In this document: positions 32,560-63,821 of the stretch, piece by piece
How positions within the stretch are numbered: position 1 is the first letter of the stretch
Layout of the letters: the number at the start of each line of letters is the position of its first letter
Notes under the pieces: generated by a model
What the model saw: the letters and a program-made list of their open reading frames with translations, nothing else
Told to the model about the DNA's origin: nothing
The model's database searches: none
Translations under genes and position numbers: made by a program
Origin: Carcharhinus longimanus
Lineage: Eukaryota
NCBI GenBank assembly: GCA_030264375.1
Contig: JASCQW010000098.1
Location: 40,416,320 to 40,480,319 of the forward strand
Length of the DNA: 64,000 nucleotides
Direction: 5' to 3'

Positions 32560-34300
32560 GGGGTGGGACTTTCCATTTTGGAAACGAAGTGCAGTGGCTC
32601 CAGATAGAGTGCAGCGAAGGCTTACCATTCTGATTCCTTGTATGACAAGACTGATGTACATGGAGAGACTGAGTTGGTTAGGATTATATTTGCCCGAATT
32701 CTGTAGAATGACNNNNNNNNNNNNNNNNNATGGTGGGGTTGTCCAGAACCAGGGGTCATAGTCTAAGGATATGGGCAAAGGACATCAAAGGACATGGAGG
32801 GGAGCCAGGATCAAACTATTGAGTTGAATGATCAGCCATGATCATAATGAATCATAGAGCAGGCTCGTAGGGCTGAATGGCTTATTGCTCCTACTTTCAA
32901 TTTTTCTACATGCTGATGGGTTTCATGCCGCATTTCCCGCTAAGTGGTGGGGTGGGCACTTGAGCCTCATTTCACACTCAGAAATTCAATTATTATGCAT
33001 CGGGAGCTGTTCTCCAAATCACGTTTCGTGTCAGGCACTGTTTTATCCACCCCACCGTCGCCTATTGAGGTTGAAGGTCTGAGCGTCATATTTAAATGTG
33101 ACCCAAACATACACATTACTCACAACAAGCCAGCTGTGTACAGAAAACTTCTTGATGTGGCTCCATCAAAGAAATAAGCTTCTCCCAGGTTCAGCAATAA
33201 CTTCTTCCAGGTTCGTAACAGTGAAGTCTTCTACTCATGAGATGGCTTCAGGCAATCCACCAGCCTCATCTCGCTAGCCCAGCAGGTGGTTGAAAGAAAC
33301 ACCAACCAGTGCAAGAAGAGGATGAATGATCTCATCCACGCCATCAGGGTCAGTCAACTTCAGTTCACTCCAATCTCACACTCTCATATTGGCACTCAAA
33401 GCATCTCACATAATATTAGCTGAATAGACACCAGCACTGATTGTTTCACGGGAACTTTAACATCACCAGCATCTCATCTGTCATGCTGCACAAACTCATC
33501 CTCAGGCCTTATTTAGGAGGGCATAGCACACACAGCAGGTATGCATGCTTCCCAACCAATCCTCCATTTCTTCTCAGCACATTCCATTGCATCTATCTTT
33601 ATGCAGGTCAAACTCACCCTCAACCACTGAGTGATATCCCAGATGGGAGGAGGGACTGTAGACGTCTCGGGTTAGTCGCAGTTTGAGGAGGATGCCGAGG
33701 AGCTGCCAGTTGAAGTCAAAGTTTGCTCCTCTGGGGAAGGTAAGATTAGCCTCTCCTAGCAAGCCAGTATGGATGAGACCTCCATGCATTGATCACATCC
33801 TTGCAATCACAGTGAGTGACATGCAATGTTGTATTCTGCCTGTTTATGAATTATATCTATCTTCTCGTCCTTACAGGCACCAGCAGCTCCAGACCTTTAA
33901 AAGCCCCAGCCCCCAGGCCACCTCATAGGAAGATGCTGAGGAGGCATCAGATGAAAAACCATCAATGTATTCATCTGCACATTCCACCAGCACAGAAGGC
34001 ACATACCCCAGGAGGTCTAGAGTAGGCTCGGGGTCACATTTTGGGCAACACCTCATAAACACGTCTCCACAGCATTTGAAAGCAATGACAACACAAGTTT
34101 CTGGCATTTGGAGGATTGTCTTGTAATGAGTAAAGGTTACAAGTGCATTTTGCAAACACTTCCAGTAAAGAGTGAAAAGGCTGTCTTCATTTCTAGGGTC
34201 AAAGCACAAGATCTGTAGCCATGATGGTCTCTCCAACCATGTGCGCATCTCAGTGTCCATTAATAGTTTCTCACTGAGGCGGTAATGACTGCATCAATCC
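32560..34300 (+). mobile_element. Second Harbinger Myb/SANT relic, interrupted by a CR1 3' fragment (~32600-32910)
   Basis: Terminus ggggtgggactttcc..gaaacgaagtg. TNQCKKRMNDLIHAIR|gtcag (33301-33348); acceptor at 33605-33606, then VKLTLNH*VISQMGGG. Confidence 0.65.
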
Positions 34301-39596: not shown

Positions 39597-39962
39597 GTGG
39601 GCACAGTGGTTAGCACTGCTGTCTCACAAGACATGGGACGAGGATTTAATTCTGGCCTTGGGTGACTGTCTGTGTGATGTTTGCATGTTCTCCCCATATC
39701 TGTGTGGGTTTCCTCTGGGTGCCCAGTTTCCTCCTACTGTCCAACAATGCGCAGGTTAAGTTGATTGGCCTTGCTAAATTGCCCCTTAGTGTCCCAAGTC
39801 AGTGGGGGGGGGGGGTGGAATTAGCGAGGTAAATACATGAGGGTCTGGGTGGGATGGTCTGTTGGAGAGTTGGTGCAAACTTGATGGGTCAAATGACCTG
39901 GAGGGTTGGTGCAGACTTGATGGGTCAAATGACCTGCTTTTACACTGTAGCGATTCTATGAA
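39597..39962 (+). mobile_element. HE1-like V-SINE, full length, with a ~35-bp internal tandem duplication
   Basis: gcacagtggttagcactgctg head, V-domain and tail gattctatga. ggtgca.acttgatgggtcaaatgacctg occurs twice (~39872 and ~39908). Confidence 0.88.
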
Positions 39963-44999: not shown

Positions 45000-47471
45000 A
45001 TGTACCTGCACATTGTGATTTTTCTCTTACTGTGGACTGGAGCTCTGACCTTGAAGAATTTGAAATACACCATCCTGGAGGAGCAGGGACCCGGGACGGT
45101 GATCGGGAACATTGCCAAAGATGCTCGGTTGGCCGGCAGTCCCGAGCAGAGGAAGGCTAACTTTCGGGTTTTGGAGAATTCCGCGCCGCATCTGTTGGAC
45201 GTGGACCGGGAGAGCGGCTTGCTCTACACCAAGCAGCGCATTGACCGGGAGACGGTGTGCAAGAGGCTGCCCAAGTGTGTGGTGTCGCTGGAGGTGTTCG
45301 CCAACGACAAGGAGCTGTGCATGATCAAAGTGGAGATCGTGGACATCAACGACAACGCGCCCGCTTTCTCCAGCGAGCAGATCGAGGTGGAGATCCCCGA
45401 GAACGCGGCGCCGGGCACGCGCATCCCGCTGACGAGCGCGCACGACCCGGACACCGGGCCGTTCGGCCTGCAGACCTACCAGCTGAGCGGCCCCAGCCGC
45501 CTCTTCGGCCTCGAGGTCAAGTCCCGGGGCGACGGCACCAAGTTCCCGGAGCTGATCATCCAGCGGCCGCTCGACCGCGAGGAGCAGGCCCGCCACGTGC
45601 TGCTGGTGACGGCGCTGGACGGCGGCGAGCCGCCCAAGTCGAGCTCGGTGCAGGTGAAGCTGGAGGTGGTGGACACCAACGACAACAGCCCGACCTTCCA
45701 GGAGGCCAGCCTGACGGTGGAGATCAGCGAGGACACGGCGCCCGGCACCCTGCTGCTGCAGGTGAACGCCACCGACCCGGACGAGGGCACCAACGGCGAG
45801 GTGGTGTACTCCTTCAGCCCATTCGTGACGGAGCGGATCCGCCAGCTCTTCTCCATCGAGCCGCACTCCGGCCTCATCAAACTGCGCGCCAAAATCGACT
45901 ACGAGGAGAGCAGCATCTACGACATCGACGTCCAGGCCAAGGACCTGGGGCCCAACTCCATCCCCGCGCACTGCAAGGTCTCCGTGCGGGTGCTGGACGT
46001 CAACGACAACGCTCCCACCGTCAACCTGGTGTCGGTCCACCAGGGCTCGGTCAGCGAGGCGGCGCCGCCCGGCACCGTCATTGCCCTGGTCAAAGTCACA
46101 GACCGCGACTTCGGCCGCAACGGGCAGCTGCAGTGCCGGGTGCTGGGCAACGGGCCCTTCAAGCTGGAGGAGAACTACGACAACTTCTACACCGTGCTGA
46201 CCGAGCGGCCGCTCGACCGCGAGCTCAACGACGAGTACAACCTGACCATCGTGGCCCGGGACAACGGCTCGCCGCCCCTCAACGCCACCCGCTCCTTCAC
46301 GGTGAAGGTGGCGGACGAGAACGACAACCCGCCCCGCTTCACCAAGCCGGTGTACGTGCTGCAGGTGCCCGAGAACAACATCCCGGGCGAGTACCTGGGC
46401 TCGGTGCTGGCCCACGACCCCGACCTGGGCCAGAACGGTACCGTGTCCTACTCCATCCTGCCCTCCCGGGTGGGCGACGTCTCCATCTACACCTACGTGT
46501 CGGTCAACCCGTCCAACGGCGCCATCTACGCGCTGCGCTCCTTCAACTACGAGCAGACCAAGTGGTTCGAGTTCAAGGTGCTGGCCAAGGACTCGGGCAG
46601 CCCTCACCTGGAGAGTAACTCCACCGTCAGGGTCACCGTGCTGGACGTGAACGACAACGCGCCGGTCATCGTGCTGCCGGTGCTGCAGAACGACACGGCC
46701 GAGATCCATGTGCCCCGCAACGCCGGCCTGGGCTACATCGTGGCCACCGTGCGGGCCGTGGACAGCGACTTCGGCGACAGCGGCCGCCTCTCCTACGAGA
46801 TCGCCGAGGGCAACGAGCAGCACCTCTTCGACATGGACCCGAGCAGCGGCGAGATCCGCACGGCGCAGCCCTTCTGGGAAGAGATGTCCCCCAGCGCCGA
46901 GCTGGTGGTCAGGGTGTCCGACCACGGCAAGCCGTCCCTGTCGGCCGTGGCCCGCCTGGTCATCGTGGCCTACCTGGGGGCGGCCCCCAAGGACGAGCAC
47001 CGGGTCAACCAGGAGCCGCGGCACTGGGACATGTCGCTGCCCCTCATCGTCACCCTCAGCTCCATCTCGGTCATCCTGCTCACCTCCATGGTCACCATCG
47101 CCGTCAAGTGCCGGAGGGAGAACAAGGAGATCCGGACGTACAACTGCAGGATCGCCGAGTACTCGCATCCCCACCTGGGCAAGAGCAGCAAGAAGAAGAA
47201 GATCAACAAGAACGACATCATGTTGGTCCAGAGTGAAGTGGAGGAGAGAGATGTCATGAACGTGGTGAGCAGTCCCTCCCTGGCCTCTTCTCCCGTTTAT
47301 TTCGATTACCAGACGCGCCTGCCGCTCAGCTCCCCCAGGTCCGAAGTCATGTATCTGAAGCCCACTTCCAACAACCTGACCGTCCCCCAGGGCCATGTGG
47401 TCTGTCACACTTTCTCCGGACAGGGTTCAAATCCGACTGACGTAACGTCGACAAGAATGTCACTGATTCAG
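45000..47471 (+). CDS. PCDH17: Protocadherin-17, coding exon 1 (signal peptide, EC1-EC6, transmembrane helix, start of cytoplasmic tail; 824 codons)
   Basis: ATG at 45000 (the track starts 2 codons earlier at TTG). MYLHIVIFLLLWTGALTLKNLKY signal peptide; repeated cadherin Ca2+ motifs (DRE/DYE, DxD, DxNDN); TM segment LPLIVTLSSISVILLTSMVTIAV. Stretches such as RVLENSAPHLLDVD, KSRGDGTKFPEL, RENKEIRTYNCRIAEYSHP and FDYQTRLPLSSPRSEVMYLKP match vertebrate PCDH17 as I recall it. Donor CAG|GTAAAA at 47471/47472, phase 0. Confidence 0.97.
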
Positions 47472-50400
47472 GTAAAACACACACACCCACACATACACCA
47501 TGGTGTCAGTAATGATTTCGTTGGTGGAACCTGTTGCTTTCAGAAAGTTATTGACAAATTGTGCCGTGCGTCTTTAAGAGTTGGGTAATGTGCTCTGTGC
47601 ACTTAATATCTATGATAAGTCAATATTTCTATAATATAACGTGTTCCCTCGCGTGAAGTGTATTGACTCCCTTATCGATCTGCATAGAGATTTATGACTA
47701 AAGTCGTATTGTACAGGGCATAAGTTGGATCCTTGAGTACTGGGCTATGGATCATAAGACCACCCCCCCCCCCCCTCAGAAAAACACCAATGTAACGCTT
47801 AGCCAAAATGTGTCAATATTTTGCCCTGTAACACCACTTTTTATTGGTAACGTGTTTTCTAAGTACAACCGATTACGTCTGTTTCACTGATGCTAAAAAA
47901 AACACTTCCACAAGCCAGTTTGAAATTGAACAGACTTTGGATTTATTGTCTGGCTTTGAATCACATTGATTTTCAGAGGAAATGTATCTGTAGATCAGTT
48001 TTATAGATCGACAGAAGACGTCATAGTTTCATTGATAGAGTGTAAGGCAACAATACATACTGATAGATGCACATATTGTAAACGGACCTACTAAAATTCT
48101 GTCGATTCTTAATTTTATTCACGTTTAAAGAAGTGATATTTCCTTTCTTAAAACAAAAGGCTTTGTCTGCATTATTCAAATTTGTCTTTAAGAATGCTAA
48201 AAACATTGGTGAGGAAATTTTTTCAATTATCACAAAATCGTATTTGTAATTGGCAGGGGAAGAATGAAGACGATTTTAAAATATGGGGAAACTTAATATA
48301 AATGATGTGACAATTTTCGATGATTTACTGCATTTTGATGAATTTAACTTTATTCATTTAGAAATGTTAATAGTAAAAATAATGTTGATTCAAAGATGTA
48401 TCTAATGTGATTAAAGGAAGTGTTTGAGACACTTTTGACTGAAAGCACTGCAAATAAATGAGAACAAACTTCATAATCCATGTTGCTATATTTATCACGA
48501 CATACTTTTGCTACAATAAGTACATGCATGTATACTAAGTATTTCTGTTTAGTCCTTCATTTCTGTATCTGGTTCATATGAGGAAGGGAAATTTCAACGG
48601 CAACCTGTAATACATAACATTTAAAAACACTTTTATTACTTCTTGGGGCATGGATATAACTAGCAAGGGGGTGTTTGTTATCTGTGCCTATTTGCTCTGG
48701 TAGGCTAGTGGTACTAATAAGTGGCTTGTTTGGCACTTTAAAGGGCAATTAAGAGTTAGTCTTGTTGGTGTAGGACTGGACTGCCACGTGCCAAGCTGGA
48801 TAAGCGGAGCTGCTTTCCTTACTTAAACAGTTGGGTTTTTACAACAACCCAGTGGCTTTGTTGTCCCTTTTTACTGATACCTTGGTTAAATTAATAATTT
48901 TAAAGAGTTTGCATTTGTTAACTAACAATAGAAATGTGGCTGCAAATATTTTTTGTGTAAAAGATGAAAGATACTGGCACATAAATGTAATTGTTGAAGA
49001 TAGATGTCTCTTTGGAAGTACTAACTGATTAAGTTTGATGCTACTTTAATTTACTGAAATATTCTCATTTGATATAACATGAGTTAATATGAGTAAGAAT
49101 AAGGCATTACGATTATGTTGGCAGATTAATAGACCAACTTTCCAATATAACCTCAAAATGTCTTATTTACTGTACAATAAGTTGCTGATACATTTCTCTA
49201 GGTGAATGGAGAAAGTAGTCACAAAATACCCCTTTACTACTACATGCCAACACATTATTCCAACCATTCTGCAATATTTGAAAGAGTTGCTAGGAGCATA
49301 AATCATTGTTGCATAAATTAATACACATTCAAACTACTGGTTTTTAGATTCACCAGTAGGACACTTGATGCATTGAAGCTATACTTTCAACTACCCTTGA
49401 GATTGAATTGGACTGTTTTTGTAAAGTTTAAATCTCTTAATGATAATCCAGTTTGTTACTTCTGACTTGATGCATGAAATCTTTTCAATAGTAACGTGAG
49501 GAATGGAAGTGGCATAGCAAGTCTTATATATAGCCACGTCTTGTCCACCTCCCCCCTCCCTTCAATTTCAGGATATTTCAAAGCACTTGAGAGCCAGTAA
49601 AGTCCTTTTGAAATGTAGTCCCATTTGTAATGTAGGGGAAGCAGCAGCCAATTTGCACAGAACCAGAGTCCCACAAGTAGCAACGAAACAATGACGAGGT
49701 GTATAGAAGAGTCAGCTATTTAAAGAAGCTAATAAATTCAGTGAACTGTTTTACAAATAATCGTTACTTAAAAGCCACATATCCATGCAAGTAGATGATG
49801 AATATTGCCACAAGCATTTCAAGTTTGCAATTAATGACTGAGGTTACAGATAGTTAATAAATATGGTACATTACATTGTGGGACTGTTGCAATGTCAGTA
49901 GCTGGTTGTTATAATTTAAAATGATGAAAACTGACTTCCATCCACATTTATAAAATTCCTATGTGTTCGTTGCTTCTCCATAAGCCCATGGTCATATAAA
50001 GTACAATTCTACCAAATCAACATCATTTTTTTTGCCGTGTATTCAATATACCCACGGGTAACTAACAGTAGTTTGTCAGGATTCATTGGAATATTTTCAA
50101 TATCACTTTGGTTATGGAGACAGCAGAATGACAGAATGGTATAATTTTGTAACTTCTACAAGATTTTTTGAGCATTTACACAGATTTTCTGTGAGAGGCA
50201 AATTCAGTGCAACATAGCACCAGATAAGAAAACCATGGACACATGATCTCCTTCAGTCTAAAAAAAGTCAGGTTAAAGCTGTTACTTCTTGTGGAAAATG
50301 TGTAATTGGCAAAACTGCACGCATATAGACAGCAGAACACTTGTAGTACAATAAAATCATATGTAACAAAAATAGATACCTACAAAGTCAGGTAAATCCA

Positions 50401-50899
50401 ATGCAGCAGTTGTTTGGTAAACCTTTCATATTACGGTCTAAATTATTATAGGTGAGATACAAAAAGTTATATTTAACATGTTCAAATACAACTTCAGTGC
50501 TTAAAAACTGATAAATATTGTTGTTAGCAAAGCAGCATTTATTTGTGGTGTCTTTACAGTATTTAATAACAAACTGCAGTAATTTGTTTCTCTATATACT
50601 ATTCAATTTGCAGATATTAAAATCAAAATATAGACTGCTAATCCTCTCTCCTTTCTGAAACCAAGGTGATTGTATTATGTTTAACATGGCATTGCCAATC
50701 TGTACCATGATGATTTTGACACACCACAGACATCAATTTTATAATAATAATTAATCAAAAGGATTCAATTTCTTTTAACTAATCTTTACATAGGATTCCA
50801 TAACCATTGGTAGAGTGAAGTTATATTACCATGTATGAACTGACAAAAGCATTTCCTTTGTGAAAAAAGGAAAGTGGTTGGATTAACTCAGGAATCTTA

Positions 50900-51365
50900 A
50901 TCCCAGTGTAGTAGAGCAAAGCAGTGTGAAGCCTTCTCCCCACTGTCAATCACTTCCATTCAAATCACTGTGAACTTCCAGTCAGTGTGAAACCTCCACA
51001 GTTGGTGACCTCCCCCCAAGTGTGAGGCTGTACCTAATCAGAATGAAGCTTCCTCAAGTCAATTTGAGACCCTCATAGTCAGTGTGAGACACACCCCAGT
51101 CAGTGAGACATGCTTACTCAATTTAATATTTTCCACCAGAGACCTTTGAGATGCGATGAAACCACCCCCCCTCCCGCATATCATTGTGAAACCATTCCAC
51201 CCCACCCCCTGCTCTGCCCCGAGTATTGGATCCTGCCATCATGTGAGATTCCACAATGAATAATGAGAGGCCCTCCAGTCAAGTGAGATCCCTGGTCAGT
51301 GTGAAACATATTGCTGGGTCAGTGCCAGATCCCTGTAAGTGAGAAACTCCATAGTAAATGTGTCA
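50900..51365 (+). repeat. Degenerate ~20-22 bp minisatellite (consensus about CCCCAGTCAGTGTGARAC)
   Basis: cagtcagtgtgaaac, tagtcagtgtgagac, cagtcagtgagac and ggtcagtgtgaaac recur with variable C-rich linkers. Confidence 0.65.
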
Positions 51366-52849
51366 CTCAGGAATGAAATCGGGTAGGAAAACTAGAAATT
51401 CTCACCAACAAAAGGATGTGAATACCAGATCAGTTGGACCTTTCAAGACTGAGGTTGATAAGATTTTTATTAGATTAGGGCATGAAGGGATATGGAACAA
51501 AAGCAGGTAAATGGTGTTAGGTATGGATCAGCCATAATCAAACTGAATTGTAGAGTAGGCTTGAGAGACTGAATGGTCTGTTCCTGCTCATACAGTGCAC
51601 TTTGCAGCCAGGTATGATCTACAGTATAATTGGGACTTGCCAGTTAAATTACACATGCCACATTTAATGAAGTCAGATCCCATAGTTCCTAGTCCTGGAT
51701 GTTGTCTTGTGTATTTTCAATTTTGTACGCCCACAGTTGCTGAGCTTGCCTTCAGGGGTCTAAGCCAGAAGCTGTGGAATTCCCACCCTAAACCTCTCTG
51801 GTCCCCTCATCATCTTTGACGGCTTTCTTAAAACCTCCTTCTGCTGTCCGAATGTCAGCTTCTTTGACCAATTTTTGATCAGTGTCAGCAAATTTTTATC
51901 CGATTATGTTTTTGCGAAGTTACTTGGGTTTTTTTATTGCATAGAGCTATATAAATACAAATTATTGTTGTTACATTTCCAATTACTGATTTTATCTCGT
52001 TGAAAACTGTGATGTCCTTTCATGAACAGTGTACTGGGAGGTGCAGTCGCATATATATGTTTGGACATACTAACCTAACAGTTCCTTCATTTCAGTTGGC
52101 ATTTAAATTCTTGTTTCAGTAGCAAGTGTTCATGGTATTAATATGTGGACTAGTTTGGTAGGATTACACAAAATATCTGGGAAGTTAAAACAATTTGTCA
52201 CTGTCCTCGACAATGCTATCAAAGAGCACTTATACAGCACTAAGCTGCTCACTGATGCTTAGTTTAGGTTCAACCGGGGTCACTCAGCAGCAGATCTCAT
52301 TACAATCTTGATCCAAACACGGAGAAAATTGCTGAACTAGTGAGGTGAGGGTGACTACCTTCAAGGCAGCATTTGACTGAGTGTGGCCTCTCGAAATTGA
52401 AGTCAGTGAGAACCAGGGGAAAAACTTGCACTGCTTGGACTCCTACCTAGTGCAAAGAAGGATAGTTGTTCTTGTTGGAAGCAAATTGTCTGAGCCCCAG
52501 GATATCACTGCACGAGTTCTTCAGGTAGTGTCCTAGGTCCAACCATCTTCAACTGCTTCATGAATAACTCTCTTTCAGAGTAGACCAGGTCGGAGCAGGT
52601 CTGAACTTTGGAGAGATGTTCGGGTAGTAGGTTACCCCCTTTCGAGAGGTATTGGGGCCCTTTGGTAAATGCAGAAAAGTTGTTGCAAAAGCCACAGAAG
52701 TGGCAAAACGTTCATTTGCAAGTGTCTGGCTTTAACCCATAAGAATAGGAGTGAGGCAATTGCAATTGGCAGGACAAAATCTTTTTCCCTTACTGACTCA
52801 GCTACCCAGGTTGCAGGAATGAGGGAGTGCCATTGAAGAAACAACAGGA

Positions 52850-53900
52850 AAATGGCACCTTCACACATTGGTGCCATAGAGGGAAATGAATGTGATCAGC
52901 CAGAGGCAGAGCAACAAGACACGAGGAAGAGTCAGTACTGTGTGTACCAGGAAGGATGACAAAGGACATACTGACTATGGAGCTCACACCTCTGAAATAA
53001 TGCCAAAGGCAGTTGAGGTTAAGCTGAGAGATTGTCACCAACATGTGTGGCATGGTGCAGCAATATCTTGATCCATAGTCTGTTGATCCATTTGCCCTGA
53101 CAGTGTCTGTAAATGTTACTGTGGCTCTCAATTTTTATGCAACAGACTCTTTCCAGTGCTCAGCAGGAGGCCTGCCTGGAATCTCACAATCTGCTGCACA
53201 AAGTTGCATCAAAGCAGTAACTGATGCCCTGTTTGCTCATGTGGACAACAATATTAACTTCTCCCTTGATTTGGTGACTAGTAACAGAGGGCCTTTTGCA
53301 CAATTAGCAGTCTTGTCTCAGCTGCCACAATAAAGCCTTCAACTTAGCTACTGGGCATCTTCATCAATGTCTAGGCAATTTGTGACTATAGTAAAGTTTT
53401 TTTTTAGGTATGTGCAAGGTTTCTAAGTAACTCCATCATGCTGAGGAATTTCAAACTCCCTTATCTTTTCATACATAGAGACCTATTTGTGGTTGGATTT
53501 GGTGGGGGGGGAGAGTGAAGGGCTAGCTGATGACCACCTTTAGGTGTCCTTACCTACACGAAATGTAAATACAACAGTAGCCATTGGCATTCTGAAATTG
53601 CACTTCCAATGTCTTAACAACTCAGGTGGAGTTCCGTCATAACCCCCTGTAAAGAGTATGCAGAATTGTAATCGTATGCTTCATCATATTGTGCCATGGA
53701 AGAGCCTGCAACCTGAGGAGAAAGATACCATGGCCAGAGCTCCATCATCTAAGGAGAAGGATGCTCATAAGGAAGAGGAAGCCCCTGTCCATTCTCAGGA
53801 ACATGGTATGAAAAAGGATGAGGAAGGCAGCAGTGGAAGAGCAGCTGAGAGGCATGACCAAGTAGCCAGGGCTGATTCTGTGCAGGAAGGGCTCGGTGCC
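52850..53900 (+). pseudogene. PIF/Harbinger DDE transposase (HARBI1-like) relic in PCDH17 intron 1
   Basis: VTVALNFYATDSFQCSAGGLPGISQSAAQSCIKAVTDALF (53103-53250), later ..VCARF.. and IGILKLHFQCLNNSGG (~53583-53630). Multiple stops and frameshifts. Confidence 0.75.
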
Positions 53901-56900
53901 AAATGTGTCCTGATGCACAACAGACTCACACAGGTTCCACACATTTAACACTTCCCTGGTCGGTTACTTCCTCATAACATTGAGCCTGCAGTTACTCAGG
54001 GATATTCCTGACAAGAGAGAAAAGCAACAACGATAAGTTTACTCAGTTATATAAATAAGGCACAAACCATCACCCTCATAACTGTCAACCACAGCACGTT
54101 GTAAACACCCAGTGTGAAACATCATCACAATCTTGACCCTTCAACTCATCGCCAGTGCTGTCAATGAGGTGCTCTTACCTACTCAAACCATGCCCTCAAT
54201 ATGGAGATTGCCAGTAGGAATTATGACTTCACATCTAATACTGGTTGATATGATTGTTTTTGCCAATCTACATGCAGATAATGCAAATTATGAAGAATGA
54301 GGCCATGGCTATGCTCAACCAGCTCTTTGAATTACTATGTCATCATCCATTCACCTTCATGGCCCAGTCTTAGTACTAGACAACATGCAATCCTACCACA
54401 AATCTTGGTTTCTTACACCTATGTCATTTGGAATGCAAAGGCATCCAAAGTATTGTGGATAACAGACAAGCAATCTTCCCTGCAGTATATATGGCACCCT
54501 GACCTATCTTACCTGCACTTCGGTACTGCATAACACTTATGTGACGATGACTGCTTTACATCCAACACTCAGGTGAGATGCACCTGATTAATTCCATCTG
54601 ATCATTGAGTCTGATCATTAGTCTCCTTTAAAGGCAACCCTGGGTGGACAATGAATGATGCGAGGAGCACTTCAGTCTTTGTATTTTTATTTGCTACTAC
54701 CTTACGTGAAAGACCAGAGAAAGAAGAAGCCTTCCTCTGCCTCACAAATATGGTCACACCCTTGATCCTGATGTTAATGTGAAATGTATCTCAGCATGCT
54801 GCCTTCTGTGTTCCAAGTAAAAACATGCTTCATAATGTTTGCAATACCATTGAAATTTGTATTGTACAAACACCGAGACAACAAAGAGTGTGTATACATG
54901 TAATCAAAAATACGCCTAATTGTGGTATGTACAGTGTGAAACGTGTAATCATGCTGAACCCACGAGTGCTTTAGGCAAGATGGCACCCTACACTTGTGCA
55001 CATACCTACAAAGTGGCCACTGTGTTGCCACAGAGAAACTGGAACCAGGCTTCTTACTTCTTGGGTAGAATTTACTGGCCATTTCCATGTATCTGTGAGA
55101 CCTTCTGGTCCCACTGACTGCGAACCCCCGCCACAGGTTTCCCTGCAGTGAGAGACACCCTGTTAACAATGGTGGTCACCTCTGCTGCTGCAGAATGCAC
55201 AAAAATCCCAGCTCTTGTTTTATAAGACATTGAGGACTGTGGTGAGTTGCCTAATCATGCAGCCATCTATGGGTGATCACCTTCAGATCACGGCCTCTAC
55301 ATCTCTATGTAGACAGCTGTGGTTACTAGCACTTGTNNNNNNNNNNNNNNNNNNNNNNNNNNNNNNNNNNNNNNNNNNNNNNNNNNNNNNNNNNNNNNNN
55401 NNNNNNNNNNNNNNNNNNNNNNNNNNNNNNNNNNNNCATCTCTATGTAGACAGCTGTGGTTACTAGCATTTGTAAAACAGGTGAGGGCTCTGGTGAAGGG
55501 GCTGATCAGTGGAGGAAGAGGGTGCTGAGAAACTCATGTTACTTTTAGACTCTTCAGTTACGTCCTTTAGCCTTCAGATGGGGTTGATGGATCTGGCTGC
55601 AGGTGCGCAGCAGTTGTCCATTCCAGCAACAATTATGCCAACAGTGCAACTGTCCTGTTCAGGGTTTGCAGCGCTCCCCTTATGTATTCCATATGTCAGT
55701 GTTCACACTATGATTGGACTGATCCAAGCTGCTAAGGGAGTTAAGCAGTCTTTCCTGGCTGAGATGCTGCTCTTGCATCCACTCCAAGTGTTGTTACATG
55801 TGTCTCTCCATAAAATTGGCCAATTTCTCATGGTTGGAGCTCCTGTAGTTAAGCATCTGAGATAATGTGAAGCTTATCAATGCCTTGGACACCTCCTCCC
55901 TCAGCACATGAACCTGCATTGCCTCAGTGAATGCCTTCAGATGTCNNNNNNNNNNNNNNNNNNNNNNNNNNNNNNNNNNNNNNNNNNNNNNNNNNNNNNN
56001 NNNNNNNNNNNNNNNNNNNNNNNNNNNNNNNNNNNNNNNNNNNNNTCAGATGTCCACACATCTGCATCTGACCGCCCAAATATTGCATCTCAAAAGGTTA
56101 CACTTGAGACTCCATGTTCCTGCCCACTGGAGCATTACTGTGCGTGTCTTTCCTCCCTCCTCCATGGGGGACTGTACACATATGTCACTGACTCTGACAC
56201 CAAATCCTACACCCTGGTGCGGTACTGTTTATCCAGTGCTATCGACTCTACATGTGCGCTGCATCTCCAAACGGCGGTATCTGAGTTGGTGGAGTGTGAG
56301 CTTGTATGGTGTTATCTCATACTCAGTGAACTGACAGCTTTACCTTCACCATTGCTACCATGTTGCAAAATGCATTTAACATATCTTATCTGCTGTAGGT
56401 GATTCTCTGACAGCCAACTGGACAGGCATGCTGGCTAATTCCTTGGCTATCTGCTCAACTGAATGAATTATCTGCAACCTTGCTGAACCACCCCCATCCT
56501 GGCCGTCTCCCTCATAGACCCCAAGACAACATGAATTTATGTTAGCCTGATATTTAATGCTGCAGGGAGAATTCTGTTTAATGTGTCTGTACATTGCAGT
56601 GCTTTTCACATCAGTACTAAGCGTGGCTACATGAACAGTTTGGACATAAAAGCCTCAGTGCTATAGCAGAAGCATGTGATGAGTCTCACACCTTAGCCAC
56701 AGCATGCAGATGCAACATCTTACTTAGACCTTTGTGAGGATGTGCCAGAAGACTCATCTTGTTGGAATGCAACAACCATGGAACCTTACTGCCTTCATTT
56801 TGGTGAGGATGTTGCACTGGCCAGCAGAAAAATTAATTTACCTTCTCTCTGTACCTCTTCTACCAAAATTCTCAGGCCCTGGTCACTGAACCTTTGTGCT

Positions 56901-57800
56901 GCAATAAAAATGTAAAAGGAGAAGGGGCATGACTCATGCACCTGACAATGCTTTCAATCACATTTGTATGCCTGCATGCACTAACTTTTCTCCATATCAT
57001 CACTGAGTACTGTAAAGGTTAGGGGAGCAAATAGCCCTGCACAAATGCATGATGCTATGGATATTACAGCTGTCACTCCCAGATTGCATGCTGCACTCCT
57101 GATCATTAACTGCCCTACTGTTTCACTCTTGTGCCATGCCATTTGCAGTTATGAGGAATCTAGTAAATGGTCAGCTGTGTCAGTGCTTTCTGATAGACAG
57201 GTAGCAAGAGGGCAGGTGGATAGGCTAAAGGATGTTGGCACTGCTCACCATAACTTTATTGAGGCATAGTATTTAACTATGTTACCGCAAAATATATTTA
57301 GTAGGTCATACTGCCAAGATGCTGTCATCTCCATGGCTGTATCTTGTGAAGCCACTTGATGCTTTCACTGGTTCAGTGCACTCCTTTCGTACAATGTGAG
57401 TGGACAGCAGCTATGAGAATTTTTCCCAAGGGAGAGCCCATGATGGGCCATCTGTTCCAGGGTCAGCAACCAGTTGAACAACATTTAGAGAGTTTACATT
57501 CATTTGAGCGGTCAGTGATGTCTCCTCCAATGAACAGACAGTAAACCATCGACTTTCTTGCTCAGAAAAGAGCCTTCTTCATGGCCCAGTTTGTATGCCT
57601 GACGAGTTCCCCAACGCACACTGGTCTTGCTTCCACCTCTGCACTACTTCTGTAGAACTCCCATTACATCCCGTCCTGACCTCAAAACTGTTTTTGTTTA
57701 AATTGTGCATTTTGAGGAACAGCAGAAAATCTTGTGCTCTTTATAGTGAAGGAATTGAACTGCTTTTTCCTCATTACTTCTAGAGCGAACATGTTCCAGC

Positions 57801-57895
57801 TTAGAACATAGAACAGTGCAGCACAGTACAGGCCCTTCGGCCCTCGATGTTGTGCCGAGCTATGTCCGAATCCAAGATCAAGCTATCCCACTCCC
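57801..57895 (-). mobile_element. Young CR1 3' tail adjoining a gap
   Basis: agaacatagaacagtgcagcacagtacaggcccttcggccctcgatgttgtgccga; CpGs retained. Confidence 0.7.
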
Positions 57896-60134
57896 NNNNN
57901 NNNNNNNNNNNNNNNNNNNNNNNNNNNNNNNNNNNNNNNNNNNNNNNNNNNNNNNNNNNNNNNNNNNNNNNNNNNNNNNNNNNNNNNNNNNNNNNNNNNN
58001 NNNNNNNNNNNNNNNNNNNNNNNNNNNNNNNNNNNNNNNNNNNNNNNNNNNNNNNNNNNNNNNNNNNNNNNNNNNNNNNNNNNNNNNNNNNNNNNNNNNN
58101 NNNNNNNNNNNNNNNNNNNNNNNNNNNNNNNNNNNNNNNNNNNNNNNNNNNNNNNNNNNNNNNNNNNNNNNNNNNNNNNNNNNNNNNNNNNNNNNNNNNN
58201 NNNNNNNNNNNNNNNNNNNNNNNNNNNNNNNNNNNNNNNNNNNNNNNNNNNNNNNNNNNNNNNNNNNNNNNNNNNNNNNNNNNNNNNNNNNNNNNNNNNN
58301 NNNNNNNNNNNNNNNNNNNNNNNNNNNNNNNNNNNNNNNNNNNNNNNNNNNNNNNNNNNNNNNNNNNNNNNNNNNNNNNNNNNNNNNNNNNNNNNNNNNN
58401 NNNNNNNNNNCTTGATAACAGAACAGGAGTCCCGATACTCTGCTTCAACAATGCACTTCAACCTCAACCTCAGAAGATTTGGCCCCACTGCACCAATGTA
58501 ACTTGTCTAATTCCTTACATAAATTACCCTCAGGATTTTTCTGAGTCAGATTACCAATTTAATGCAGATTCATTGGCATTTTTGTGCTTTTCTACCATTC
58601 CCACGAGGAGATGAATTCTGATTGCTCAAATTGGTTTCATGTTGGTCTACTGAAATCAACTGAGAAAGGGATAGCTTTGATTGGCCCAGACTTCGATTCT
58701 GATCCAAATCTCAGTGGTGATCGTTGTGGTAATTCATTGCACCAGGCAGCCTCTCTATGTATGTTTAAAAATATTCTGCCCCTTTTATTAATAACATATT
58801 TGTATGTGCTAATTTTATTTAAACTTCCCACAAGTAAAATTAGGGGGGTTTATTATGGTTTCCCAGCTAATGCCAGTTGGCATGTCTGCTTTGCATGGCT
58901 TCAGCTTTCAAGAGCTTATGAGAAAGAAAATTGGGTTTTCCATCAGATTCAACATTGTAGATTAGTGCCGGGGGAAAGATTTTAATGTTTGAATTTGAGA
59001 GAAGTTTTCATTTACTGGGCTAAATGTGGTTAATATCCAATAAAACAAATATTTATACAAGTTCTATATAAAAACAGAGATAATAAGCTTCAGGCATCAG
59101 AATAGGTTCATAACACTTTCAAAAGCGTAGGATATTGGTCCGAAGAGAGAGAGAAACATAAACAGAGAGAGCAATAAGAAACTGCAGAAAACTTTCAAAT
59201 TATCTCTTGTCTTTCTCTGTGCCTTTTAGGGGGCAGGAGTATTTAGGAACATGAATTAAAATCAGCTCAGAAATACATTTTAAAATTGGTTTTTATTTTA
59301 TGCAGCAAAATTGACTGCCCAATACATGTGTGGAACCTCATGCGTGTAAAGCGAAAATAATACTTCAGCCAACACATTATTCCTAGCAACTCTTCCCAAA
59401 CCATATTTATATGCCTGTGCCTGCTTTCTTCTACGTATTTTGGTTTACTTACTGAAGAATCTTCAAAAGCTTCTGCATCATTCAGAGGAAGGTTTTTTTT
59501 GAACATGGCTCATCTTTTTAATTTTTAGTAGAATATTATCAGATTGGGAAGGATTACTGTATGAATGTAGCCACATACCAGCAAATTAGTTTGCCCCTGG
59601 TTATGAAAAGTGCCAGACAGCAGCCATCTTAGTGAAATAATTTTCCAACAGCAAATGTTAGTGGGATTTTGATATTTCAATGAGATGATCACTAGTGAAT
59701 ATATTTCAGCATTGACAAGGCCGTTACATTTAAACATAATTTAGTATCTATTAGAGGCTTACTTTTTAAGATTGATGGAAGTGCATACTAGATATATGCA
59801 AATACAGTTCTTGTCACACGCAAGCTACTGTACATTTGAGTAAGTTATTTGAAACCTATTACTTTTATCTTCTTTTGTTCTCATGAAAATTTATTTAATG
59901 TTTAAAACTTAGTCATTCAGCTTATTCAGAAATGTAGCGTTTACAATTCTTGTGCTGCATAAAGCATACTTTTCTCAAAACCATAAAGAACTGATGAAGC
60001 AGAAAATCTGTTCTTATTGAGTATGAATTAGCCTTGTTTTGGCAATGTTTGGATATAATGTTTGCTTGTAATGGGCAAGCTGGTTTGGCAGCCTAGTGTA
60101 GTGTAGTGATGCCTGGCTCTAAATGTACTGCGAT

Positions 60135-60520
60135 CTCAGTCTCAGCTAAGTGGGTAGCACTCTAGCCTTTGCTAGAAGATATAGCTCCCTGGTCCCAATC
60201 CATGAAACTTGAACACATAATCTAATACCATACTGAGGGAGTCCCAAACTGTCAGAGATGTGAGATTTGATACTAAGCCGAGGTGTCTCAGGTGAATAAA
60301 AAAGATCTCATGGTACTGTCTGCAAAAAAGCAAGGTACTTTTCCTCAGTGTCTTGGTCAATATTTATCTGTCGACCTACATATTGAAACAGATTGTCAGA
60401 TCGTTTCATTAACTCATTGTTGGAGCCTTGCTGTGTACGGAAATTGCCGTTTTTTCGCATCAAAACCTGAAAAGTGCTTCGGGGCATTCTGAGGTTGTGA
60501 AAGATAGATACAATTTTTAC
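60135..60520 (+). mobile_element. Deu-domain SINE
   Basis: tRNA-like head; tggagccttgctgtgtacggaaattgcc core; ctgaggttgtgaaag tail. Confidence 0.6.
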
Positions 60521-61000
60521 TATCGCTTTCCATCTTGCATTCTAGCTTTCCGGTGTGTGCAGCCTTGAAAACACCCCTTTCCCTTTGCCATACCGAGCTA
60601 AACCATTTTGTTTGCTATCAGATCCAGACATTGGATGCATGATGTAAGCTACCATTGTGATGTTATAAAAAACAGAGTTGCTCATCTCCATTGCTCCTTA
60701 GTAACACTGTAACAGTACGTTTTAAAATAATCAATGTGTACCAGAGTTGCCCTATTCATTACCTGCATTCAGGGTGATTCCAAGATGGTTTTTCATTTGA
60801 TATGCATGTTATTTAACACTTACTACAAGCATACTCATATACACATACATGGAGAGACCCACACAGTTTAACAGTCAGATCTCAGATAAAGTATCATATT
60901 TCTGTTAAAATCTATATGCAGTGCATCAGATAGACACAGAGTAACCCTATAATCCCATTCTGTAGACACTGGAGAGGCTGAGAAATAAGAAATCAGATGA

Positions 61001-61190
61001 TATTGACAGGTTAGCACCATTAATAGGATTCAGAACTGTTTTATTGACAAGGCAGTACTGTTAATATGACCTACTGTATTAAATTGACAGGAGAAATCTG
61101 GCAATAGAATCCTTTCTGTGCTGTAATTGACAGGGAAACCCTTTCAATAGGGTCTTAATGCGCTTTTTATTGACAATGTACCTATCACTA
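61001..61190. repeat. Array of five spaced dyad motifs, 40-43 bp period
   Basis: ATTGACA at 61002, 61043, 61083, 61126 and 61169. AATA lies exactly 20 nt downstream of the motif start in units 1-4. Confidence 0.8.
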
Positions 61191-63762
61191 AGTACATATA
61201 TTTGCTGAATGATGTAAATATGCTGAATGCCATAGTACAGTCAAGGCAGCAGTGTAGTTACTGGTGTTGTGGATTGTGTAATAGAAGAGTGAACTGATGT
61301 GTATGAAAAAAATCACGTCATGTAATATGCCCATAAAAAACAAACATTAATAAAATTGCCAACAACCACTCCAGTTATCCTAATACAATGTGACATATTC
61401 CATGTTTTTTTAAATGGATGAAGTCAAAACAAAGTGATTTTTCAGCACCAAGGGTATTTCTTGACAACTGCTTTCTAGTCTAGATTTTGTAAGTGCTTTA
61501 GACCTTATTACGTGAAATTCATGTAACCCAATGAGTCTTGGATTTTCTTAACTCTGTTACAAACAAAACAAAGAAACAACTGTGAGTTCTCTCAGGAATG
61601 TTGTGATTCAAAGGTTTCAGTAAATCCAGGCCTTTCCTCAAATGTGAGTTCATATTTAGCTGGATTTTCAAATTAGTTCATACGGATTTCATTACCTGAT
61701 ATGCTGGATGAAGTTACTGTGTAGCACTGATCTTCATTATTCCATGGCTTTCAAAAGATTGTCTAAAGCTGTGGGTGGACTTGCAAAGAATTCTGATTTC
61801 TTGATTGCTACTCACAAAGCATTTTGCCAAAATATCCATGGTTTTACTGAAAAGGGGGAAAAGGAGCAGAAGAAGTGATGAACAACTAATGCGTGTTTGA
61901 AACTGGGTGGTTTATGTACACTGTTGAAGCTTTGTTTATAAAGCTTATAAAAGGAAAGATGAATCATTGAAGTGAGAAGATTTACCTCTGTGTATCTGTT
62001 TGTTTGTTCTGTCACCGTCTTTAAATGGGGTGTTTTAAATGGTGAACAAGATCATGACCTGACTCATTATAGCTAGTTTAGAACAGGACCTTATTTACAT
62101 GTCACAAACAAGAAACCTGAGAAACTAGTATAATTTAAACAATCAGTGGAGCAGTATTAGGAGAAATAAAAGTTGGACAATTTGAAATGGTTCAGTTATG
62201 GTATCTCTGAGCACCACCTTTTTAGTCATGTCTCAAAAAATAGAAACACCAGAAACAGGAGGAAGCCATTCAGCTCCTCAACTGCTCTATGATTCAGTTA
62301 GTTTATGGCTGATTTGCACAGCAGCTGCATTTGTTCCATATCCCATGATTTTTTTCCTAACAAAACATGTATCTCAGTGTTGAAAGTTCCAATAGTCCCA
62401 ACATCCACATCATTTTGTGGAGAGTTGAGTTCCAAATTCCTGGAAAGAGAGTTCCAGATTTCAGATGCCTACTTTAAATTATTCCCAGGAAAAAGAAGAC
62501 TTAGTGAAAGAATTTCCTTAATGGGTGAATGGGTCAAGCATAGACAGCTAATAATCATGACAAGATAAAGATATGACACTGCATCATTTTATTACAATCT
62601 AACAAAGAAATGATCAACTGCCCAGCAAAGCTGAGACACTGCTAAGCATAAAATTGATCAGGGCTATAATTTTACACATGGAACCACAGATTCCATCACA
62701 AATTATCCAAAATCTCTTGGCTCATCAGTAAACCTTTATTCTGAGCAGAAGAGATCACTGTGTTATGATAAATAAAGTCTGGGACAATTAGAAAGAATTT
62801 CTATTTCTATCTAGAAAGAAATATAGAATTATGAATAATTTCTTAATACTATAAATAAAAGAACTATTTGAGATATCTAATTCTAGTGTATTTACAAAAC
62901 TTGTATCCTTATATTTGGTAAAAAGTTGTTCCTTTGATGTTTCTGCAGAAAAGGTGCAAACACCTATTCGTGTTGAGACAAATAAAATGGCACTTCATTT
63001 TGAACCTTTGCATTAGTATTTTACACTAAAAGAGATGTAACTTCTAACATTACATTGGAGGCAAGAATTTTGCATGGTTATTTAGCCCCTTGCAATTCTG
63101 TTTAATAGTTTTTATTTTAAAAGTTGAGAGTGGGGGATTTTACATTTGTTTAATGAAACAAATGGTGATGTTGAAAGTTCAAAGGTTACCTAGTCTGCTT
63201 AACTTCATCTCAACAGTGCCTAATGTATCTGTACATTATTCTTTGTGTGCTATTCTAAATGCAGTCTTTCATCTAATTGTGAATCCCCAAATAATTCACA
63301 GAGAAACTTGACACAAGTACCTCACATTAAGCCTTTCTGTTTAGAAGGAAAAGCTGTTGTTGCAATTCTGTGAATTATATAATTGCTTCTGAAACTGATT
63401 TAATACAACAATAAAAATTGTGATAAAAATGACGAATTGAAAATTACACCCAGAATTGCTTGATGCTGAGGGAGAATAAAGTTCCTCCCTGTTTCCATCC
63501 ATGCTCAAATTCAGATTCAACAGTTTAAAGAAATATTTTACTTTTGATAGTGGCACTGTTTAAACCAGCAAAATTCTTGCCCTATCTGTTTGTTTTGGAT
63601 AAACAGTTATAGAGGTAGGGGTTTTTTGAAAGCAATTATAGTGGACAAATCTAAAGATAAAAAGGATTTTATGAATTAATCATCTTCCTCTAGGAAATTT
63701 TGTTTCTCTCTAGATTTTAATATGTACCAATATACTTAAATTTCTTCATCTATTCTTCACAG

Positions 63763-63821
63763 ACAGACAATTTTCCCACAGAGCCCAATTACATGGGCAG
63801 CAGGCAGCAGTTTGTTCAAAG
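63763..63821 (+). CDS. PCDH17: Protocadherin-17 coding exon 2 (59 nt, TDNFPTEPNYMGSRQQFVQS)
   Basis: Pyrimidine tract tttcttcatctattcttcacAG before the exon and AG|GTAAGT donor after it. In frame with exon 1 (..MSLIQ|TDNFP..), matching the PCDH17 tail. Too short for the ORF track. Confidence 0.95.

Follow-up and report, generated by a model that had tools for sequence, protein, structure and literature searches.

What has kept a short, regularly repeated motif recognisable in the intron of a shark neural gene? A sequence-only reading of the locus had described five phased palindromes in intron 1 of PCDH17, and had proposed that they serve a dimeric DNA-binding protein, derive from a transposon or fold as RNA hairpins. 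We examined these possibilities, together with that of a decayed minisatellite, in the window, i.e. the whole stretch of 64,000 nucleotides of Carcharhinus longimanus DNA that was analysed; all positions given below are positions in this window.

The array lies in the first intron of PCDH17

The array occupies positions 61001-61190 (190 bp). The window contains the 5' part of PCDH17, with coding exon 1 at 45000-47471 (+ strand), identified by protein and structure matches, and a 59-nt exon 2 at 63763-63821 (+ strand), recognised by its splice signals (AG...GTAAGT), which closes intron 1 (47472-63762). When the exon-1 product (828 aa) was compared with EC1-4 structures, PCDH17 scored 631 bits, PCDH19 552 and PCDH10 446 over the same domains. 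Its best protein matches are shark PCDH17 (99% for Mustelus asterias, 95% for catshark and white shark), as would be expected of a carcharhiniform (ground) shark, and the exact protein has no entry in the protein cluster index. These matches bear out the host gene named from the sequence alone. The array is thus located 13.5 kb into the intron, about 16 kb downstream of the PCDH17 promoter and 2.6 kb before exon 2, which is also the nearest splice site, and we presume PCDH17 to be its target. None of the 11 N runs of the window (2,076 bases) touches the array, the nearest being at 57896-58410. PCDH17 has been named as a gene specifying neuronal connectivity (PMC13142310).

Four lopsided dyads and a fifth half-site

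All five units that had been picked out by eye are present on the + strand, in place and letter for letter. Unit 1 (61001-61025) consists of the left half ATTGACAG-G, a 7-nt gap and a weak right arm ending in AATA, and has three mismatches with the consensus dyad. Unit 2 (61042-61066), in which the left half and its flank read TTATTGACA, and unit 3 (61082-61106), whose left half carries TTGACAGS, both have the 7-nt gap and a right arm, with two mismatches each. In unit 4 (61125-61149) the left half and flank, TAATTGACA, are followed by the same gap length and a right arm, and this unit forms the strongest local hairpin (-8.4 kcal/mol). Unit 5 (61168-61190) keeps an intact left half, with a gap of 5 nt, a poor right arm and no fold, so that the array is better described as four N7 dyads followed by a fifth left half than as the five N7 dyads first claimed.

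The array is real. The heptamer ATTGACA occurs five times in it, with start-to-start spacings of 41, 40, 43 and 43 bp and linkers of 16, 15, 18 and 18 nt, and no other 7-mer of the window has five same-strand copies, each at least 15 bp from the next, within 200 bp (Poisson p ~1e-6 per window). In the 64-kb window, only units 1-4 are gap-7 sites within three mismatches of the consensus dyad, i.e. four sites against a mean of 0.1 in Markov-simulated windows. Profile and PWM scans of the window found no sixth unit.

Among units 1-4, identity is 87% for the left arms, 72% for the right arms, 40% for the gaps and 28-32% for the linkers, which are near random in sequence. We observed that 14 of the 25 columns are invariant, following the pattern W-ATTGACA-R-G-NN-A-NNN-C-NNNN-AATA, and that two of these columns, G10 and A13, fall in the spacer. 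The earlier statement that the arms and the 7-nt gap were kept while the gap sequence diverged therefore holds for units 1-4 in its outline, but not for the degenerate right arms, the 5-nt gap of unit 5 or the two fixed spacer positions. Likewise, the layout of inverted arms stands but perfect symmetry does not, since only six or seven of the nine arm pairs are complementary in any unit. Indeed, the dyads are lopsided, with 0/35 mismatches in the left core against 8/35 in the right (Fisher p=0.005), and an intact TGTCA is found in none of the five right arms.

The period of 40-43 bp is regular, as had been noted, but the units are not strictly in phase: at 10.5 bp per turn the offsets are -0.10, -0.29, -0.19 and -0.10 turn. 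Phasing is loose and constitutes weak evidence, and we give it little weight because a tandem origin alone yields a regular period.

Words of the TATTGAC/GTCAATA type occur 12 times in the window, three of them in the array and four within 270 bp just past the exon-1 donor (47549, 47619, 47661 and 47812). The words at 47549-47818 may form a second site cluster, either for the factor of the array or for a FOX-type factor.

The pattern of conservation differs from that of a decaying minisatellite

A neutral, lineage-specific minisatellite that has decayed, with one stretch retained by luck, would account for the regular 40-43-bp period, and would be compatible with the marginal constraint that we found among relatives (see below). 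To set against it, the array is not reported by TRF at score 30, and the likeness of whole units from head to tail that such a repeat should show is absent, the linkers being only 28-32% identical. The retained columns are also complementary to each other, in 9 of 12 consensus pairs. We simulated uniform decay to the same mean identity (star tree, no indels, with a statistic picked after inspection of the data). In such conditions, a run of at least seven invariant columns appeared in 0.09% of 29,284 simulations, a share that fell to 0.017% when 14 invariant columns were required as well, which places uniform minisatellite decay at p about 2e-4 to 9e-4 for the observed pattern. The simulation bears out the initial impression that this is not ordinary minisatellite decay, and we regard a minisatellite spared by luck as improbable.

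A scan of metagenome sequences led to the same contrast. With a strict two-unit pattern, no locus was found; a relaxed version retrieved 23 loci from metagenomes and 2 from viruses, none of which has three or more dyads of the array's layout with diverged linkers. We rejected them as relatives of the array, since each is either a tandem repeat of the ordinary kind or a pair due to chance, and the metagenome tandem repeats carrying the same word have nearly identical linkers, unlike the shark array. Three metagenome contigs (L011, L014 and L020) hold long tandem arrays of ~42-64-bp units that carry ATTGACAG; their conserved linkers suggest ordinary satellites with no relation to the shark array. 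Within the window itself, a 36-bp unit is repeated 2.1 times at 39863-39936, with 94% identity.

The array is apparently single-copy and may change slowly among close relatives

At least half of the words of 60700-61400 were found in 19 of the 24 sequencing runs listed. No RNA run is named among those that contain them, to which we attach no meaning as regards expression. Four runs, X19, X17, X11 and X20, were compared with the shark sequence over 60601-61800 at 80% likeness. In X19, X17 and X11, which are DNA-type assemblies of three relatives, a single contig covers the array at this likeness. One contig per run leaves no room for a family of copies at least 80% alike, older copies escaping such a threshold, and the view that the array is not part of a young, high-copy transposon is upheld at that level.

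In X19 and X17, divergence is 0.5% in the array and 2.3-2.6% in the flanks. The array sits in a low-divergence block (60968-61223) that holds two listed substitutions in these two relatives, at 61111 in a linker and at 61179 in the gap of unit 5. Of the 43 substitution sites of X19 and X17, two fall in the 190-bp array where 6.8 are expected, which gives p=0.025 if three unplaced sites of X17 lie outside the array, as is likely, and p=0.30 in the worst case that all three lie inside; X19 alone gives p=0.085. Positions are listed for 40 of the 52 differences, and by our tally the remaining 12 belong to X20 (six), X11 (three) and X17 (three); a further five differing letters in X19 and two in X17 carry no position. 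X11, which differs at six places, three of them with no listed position, was excluded from the constraint test. The comparison weakly suggests, at the level of these alignments, that the array changes more slowly than its flanks and may be under constraint. Arms and other positions of the array are not told apart by it (0/90 against 2/100 substitutions, p=0.5), in relatives that are only 2-3% divergent.

The fourth run, X20 (organism H), is a run of very short contigs, one of which is 169 bp long and covers 60991-61159, almost exactly units 1-4. The probability of such a placement at random is about 0.03. This contig could reflect accessible chromatin, capture or RNA, which is a guess, or chance. 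We do not count it as evidence, since its share is small and both the library type and the kinship would have to be assumed. Moreover, it differs at 6 of its 169 positions, with no listed positions, and this tempers the picture of low divergence. Beyond the array, 61321-61449 is a second stretch free of listed substitutions in both X19 and X17, with one insertion in X17 and one deletion in X11.

A transposon relic would have to be old and diverged

Spaced dyads around a 7-nt core bring to mind the sites of tyrosine recombinases, which have arms of 11-13 bp and a spacer of 6-8 bp (PMC3212892). The array could then be what is left of an ancient, non-autonomous DNA element of transposon origin, either of Crypton/Eulor type or the subterminal array of a TIR element, in which the dyads are former transposase or recombinase sites, now decaying or exapted. 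Eulor5 and Eulor6 are Crypton relics that have persisted in bony vertebrates (PMC5753468), and they resemble the array in being ancient, low-copy, non-coding vertebrate DNA. In addition, a family whose copies are less than 80% alike would have escaped the comparison with relatives.

The shark dyads differ from this model in several respects. Their arms are shorter (8-9 bp), imperfect and degenerate on one side, their gap sequences are unlike one another, and their decay is one-sided (0/35 against 8/35), whereas a symmetric site lost under neutrality would be expected to decay in both halves. There is one contig per run at the 80% level, with no dispersed copies, and no second copy of the array in the window. 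As for termini, the best inverted repeat bracketing the array within 1.5 kb on each side matches at 17/20 positions, a score reached by 2 of 30 shuffles. We also considered a 22-nt inverted pair, 86% identical, that brackets the array (60056-60077 and 61328-61349) as the ends of a TIR transposon or MITE, and rejected it since shuffles place it at the level of chance. Animal Cryptons lack terminal repeats (PMC3212892), so that missing termini do not exclude an element of this type; the Eulors were compared by description only. Taken together, we find a transposon relic rather unlikely, while keeping it as a serious alternative.

Other parts of the window look repeat-derived. At ~60130-60490 lies what looks like an old SINE copy, presumably of DeuSINE type, and a search of the window at E<1e-3 gave no further copy of it. 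Three diverged copies of a dispersed repeat (68-79% identical) are found at 62263-62418, 51408-51576 and 32831-32883; we assume that this repeat is probably a LINE fragment.

The arms appear to be conserved as sequence rather than as pairing

Inverted arms in an intron can also be read as a series of hairpins, formed in the pre-mRNA or as cruciforms and acting on the splicing or RNA processing of PCDH17. Units 2-4 do fold locally (z -2.1 to -2.6), and a C-to-T change in two right arms is still compatible with G-U pairing on the sense strand. At the scale of the whole region the signal is lost: the z value is -1.49 for RNA and -1.70 for DNA, and the five hairpins are absent from the best fold. 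Among the four paralogous units, a two-sided change is found in none of the nine pairs, and pairing is missing from 7 of the 36 cells. A search of Rfam gave nothing at the gathering level, the best of three chance-level matches having an E of 1.8, and the distance to the nearest splice site is 2.6 kb. The proposal of a pre-mRNA hairpin series is thus not supported by covariation (0/9 pairs) or by the stability of the region (z about -1.5), and we hold it to be very improbable. The invariance of the arm sequence points rather to a protein reading the bases of double-stranded DNA.

The left half-site is a TALE-class word

By CAP-SELEX, ATTGACA is the core of composites that TALE proteins form with ATTA-type homeodomain, FOX and ONECUT proteins (PMC12119339, Supplementary Table S4). 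The seeds are TAATTGACA for a homeodomain protein with TGIF2LX or MEIS3, AATATTGACA for FOX with TGIF2LX, TTATTGACA for ONECUT2 with TGIF2LX, and TTGACAGS for MEIS2 (PMC12119339). We observed that in all five units the left core and its flanks match exactly at least one of these TALE or TALE-composite seeds: the MEIS2 seed in units 1, 3 and 4 (3/5), the homeodomain composite in unit 4 only and the ONECUT composite in units 2 and 5. In none of the five units did we find an exact match to the FOX composite or to the PBX-MEIS/PREP decamer TGATTGACAG.

The earlier attribution to a MEIS/PKNOX/TGIF core is therefore right for the left half, which is a TALE-class word, but a symmetric homodimer site is not what the array contains. 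Among the matches listed (the first 10 each of 166 for TGIF, 102 for MEIS and 19 for PKNOX), the TALE homodimer seeds are TGACA-N2-TGTCA, with two intact halves (PMC12119339), whereas in the array the two pentamers are spaced by N9 and the right TGTCA is intact in 0/5 units. A literal search of one supplement file of the same study gave no seed for a TGACA dyad with long spacing. From this comparison, the array resembles a cluster of TALE composites and not a TALE homodimer site. It differs from the CAP-SELEX composites in that these are single (PMC12119339), whereas here a weak inverted copy stands at a fixed distance from each half-site and the whole is repeated every 40-43 bp. In the literature we found no link between MEIS and a PCDH17 element. 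BNC2/basonuclin, considered as another possible reader, was abandoned, as the literature search returned nothing relevant.

Similar dyads exist in vertebrate conserved non-coding elements

We searched 6,693 human-fugu conserved non-coding elements (CNEs; PMC3261376) for four half-site words and their complements, which gave 76 exact matches, and judged dyads by eye. Three CONDOR elements contain convergent dyads. CRCNE00004169 has two tandem N4 dyads with a period of 32 bp, of which zebrafish keeps the arms, the first gap being changed; CRCNE00008505 has a TGAYAG-N4-CTGTC dyad whose cores are kept in zebrafish with a changed gap; and CRCNE00008624 has a perfect TTGACA-N9-TGTCAA core, which is the spacing of the array (7-nt gap), with no entry in the zebrafish file (PMC3261376). 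The probability of finding the latter by chance is about 0.02 when the spacing is fixed at that of the array, and 0.23-0.27 if any of 13 spacings is allowed. Enrichment of the half-site in CNEs is not supported, since it matches 23 times and its three permuted controls match 22, 6 and 13 times.

These elements resemble the array by their convergent TTGAYA(G) half-sites and free gap sequence, by the tandem arrangement in CRCNE00004169 and by the N7 gap in CRCNE00008624. They differ in that their right arms are intact, that there are at most two dyads per element, and that the gap in the zebrafish-kept pair is N4, not N7, a difference of ~100 degrees of helix; no homology to the shark locus was seen. 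The clusters of Meis/Pbx-Hox sites described in CNEs by Parker et al. (2011, PMC3261376) likewise combine several TGACAG/A words in a short non-coding element of a developmental gene, but the shark array lacks the TGATTGACAG decamer, and a regular period and dyad layout are not mentioned for those clusters in the material consulted from that study. When TATTGACAGG and AATTGACAGG were sought in the CONDOR, zebrafish and VISTA files, sets that may not cover PCDH17, 14 of 14 matches were in places with no orthologous array.

The CNE dyads are a lead towards a recurring dyad grammar and fall short of proof. Such a grammar, undescribed in vertebrates, would consist of convergent TTGAYAG dyads with a fixed gap length and a free gap sequence, in tandem (N7 four times in shark PCDH17, N4 twice in human and zebrafish). 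Its reader would be a dimer that SELEX collections lack, perhaps two bridged TALE proteins or else a transposase or recombinase that has been domesticated, and the PCDH17 array would be an ancient gnathostome element. We think it improbable that all of this holds, about as improbable as a minisatellite spared by luck.

Discussion

Homotypic clusters of binding sites are a known kind of element. The array answers to this description, as the same site recurs within a short non-coding stretch more often than chance would allow, and the array is single-copy (at a likeness of at least 80%, in three DNA-type assemblies) in a neural or developmental gene. It probably is functional, and the reading that we place at even chances is a constrained cis-regulatory array of PCDH17, enhancer or silencer, that arose by old tandem amplification of a unit of ~41 bp. 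In terms of binding, it is likely an old array of enhancer type on which homeodomain proteins resembling MEIS would dock.

The following mechanism can be proposed. A unit of ~41 bp would have been amplified in tandem long ago, after which selection would have retained the contact positions W-ATTGACA-R-G-NN-A-NNN-C-NNNN-AATA and the length of the gap, while the linkers drifted to random. A TALE protein of MEIS/TGIF type may sit on each invariant ATTGACA(G) half, with an overlapping partner that could be an ATTA-type homeodomain, a FOX or an ONECUT protein. A second protomer or a cofactor would touch the weak right half and thereby fix the gap length. Four or five such complexes, roughly on one face of the helix, might then act additively on the PCDH17 promoter, which lies ~16 kb upstream; the setting would probably be neurons.

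Neither the array nor the spaced dyad is described in the literature that we searched, a body that lies outside subscription papers, Dfam and Repbase, and no such motif was found in the accessible part of bioRxiv 2025.11.09.687492. What appears to be new is the lopsided dyad with a fixed gap, repeated at 41 bp, a variant of the homotypic cluster that we could not match.

Were the array merely a decayed repeat, it would be of little importance. As a rule, conserved non-coding elements cannot be interpreted from their sequence. In this array the site recurs four to five times between linkers that have drifted, which provides a footprint of the contact bases as well as a ready design for mutants of arm, gap and phase. 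Should the dyad grammar prove to recur across the genome, a DNA-binding dimer that is as yet unassigned would be implied. If the array is a PCDH17 enhancer, the patterning of a neuronal adhesion gene in sharks would become directly accessible, and so would the building of enhancers by tandem duplication.
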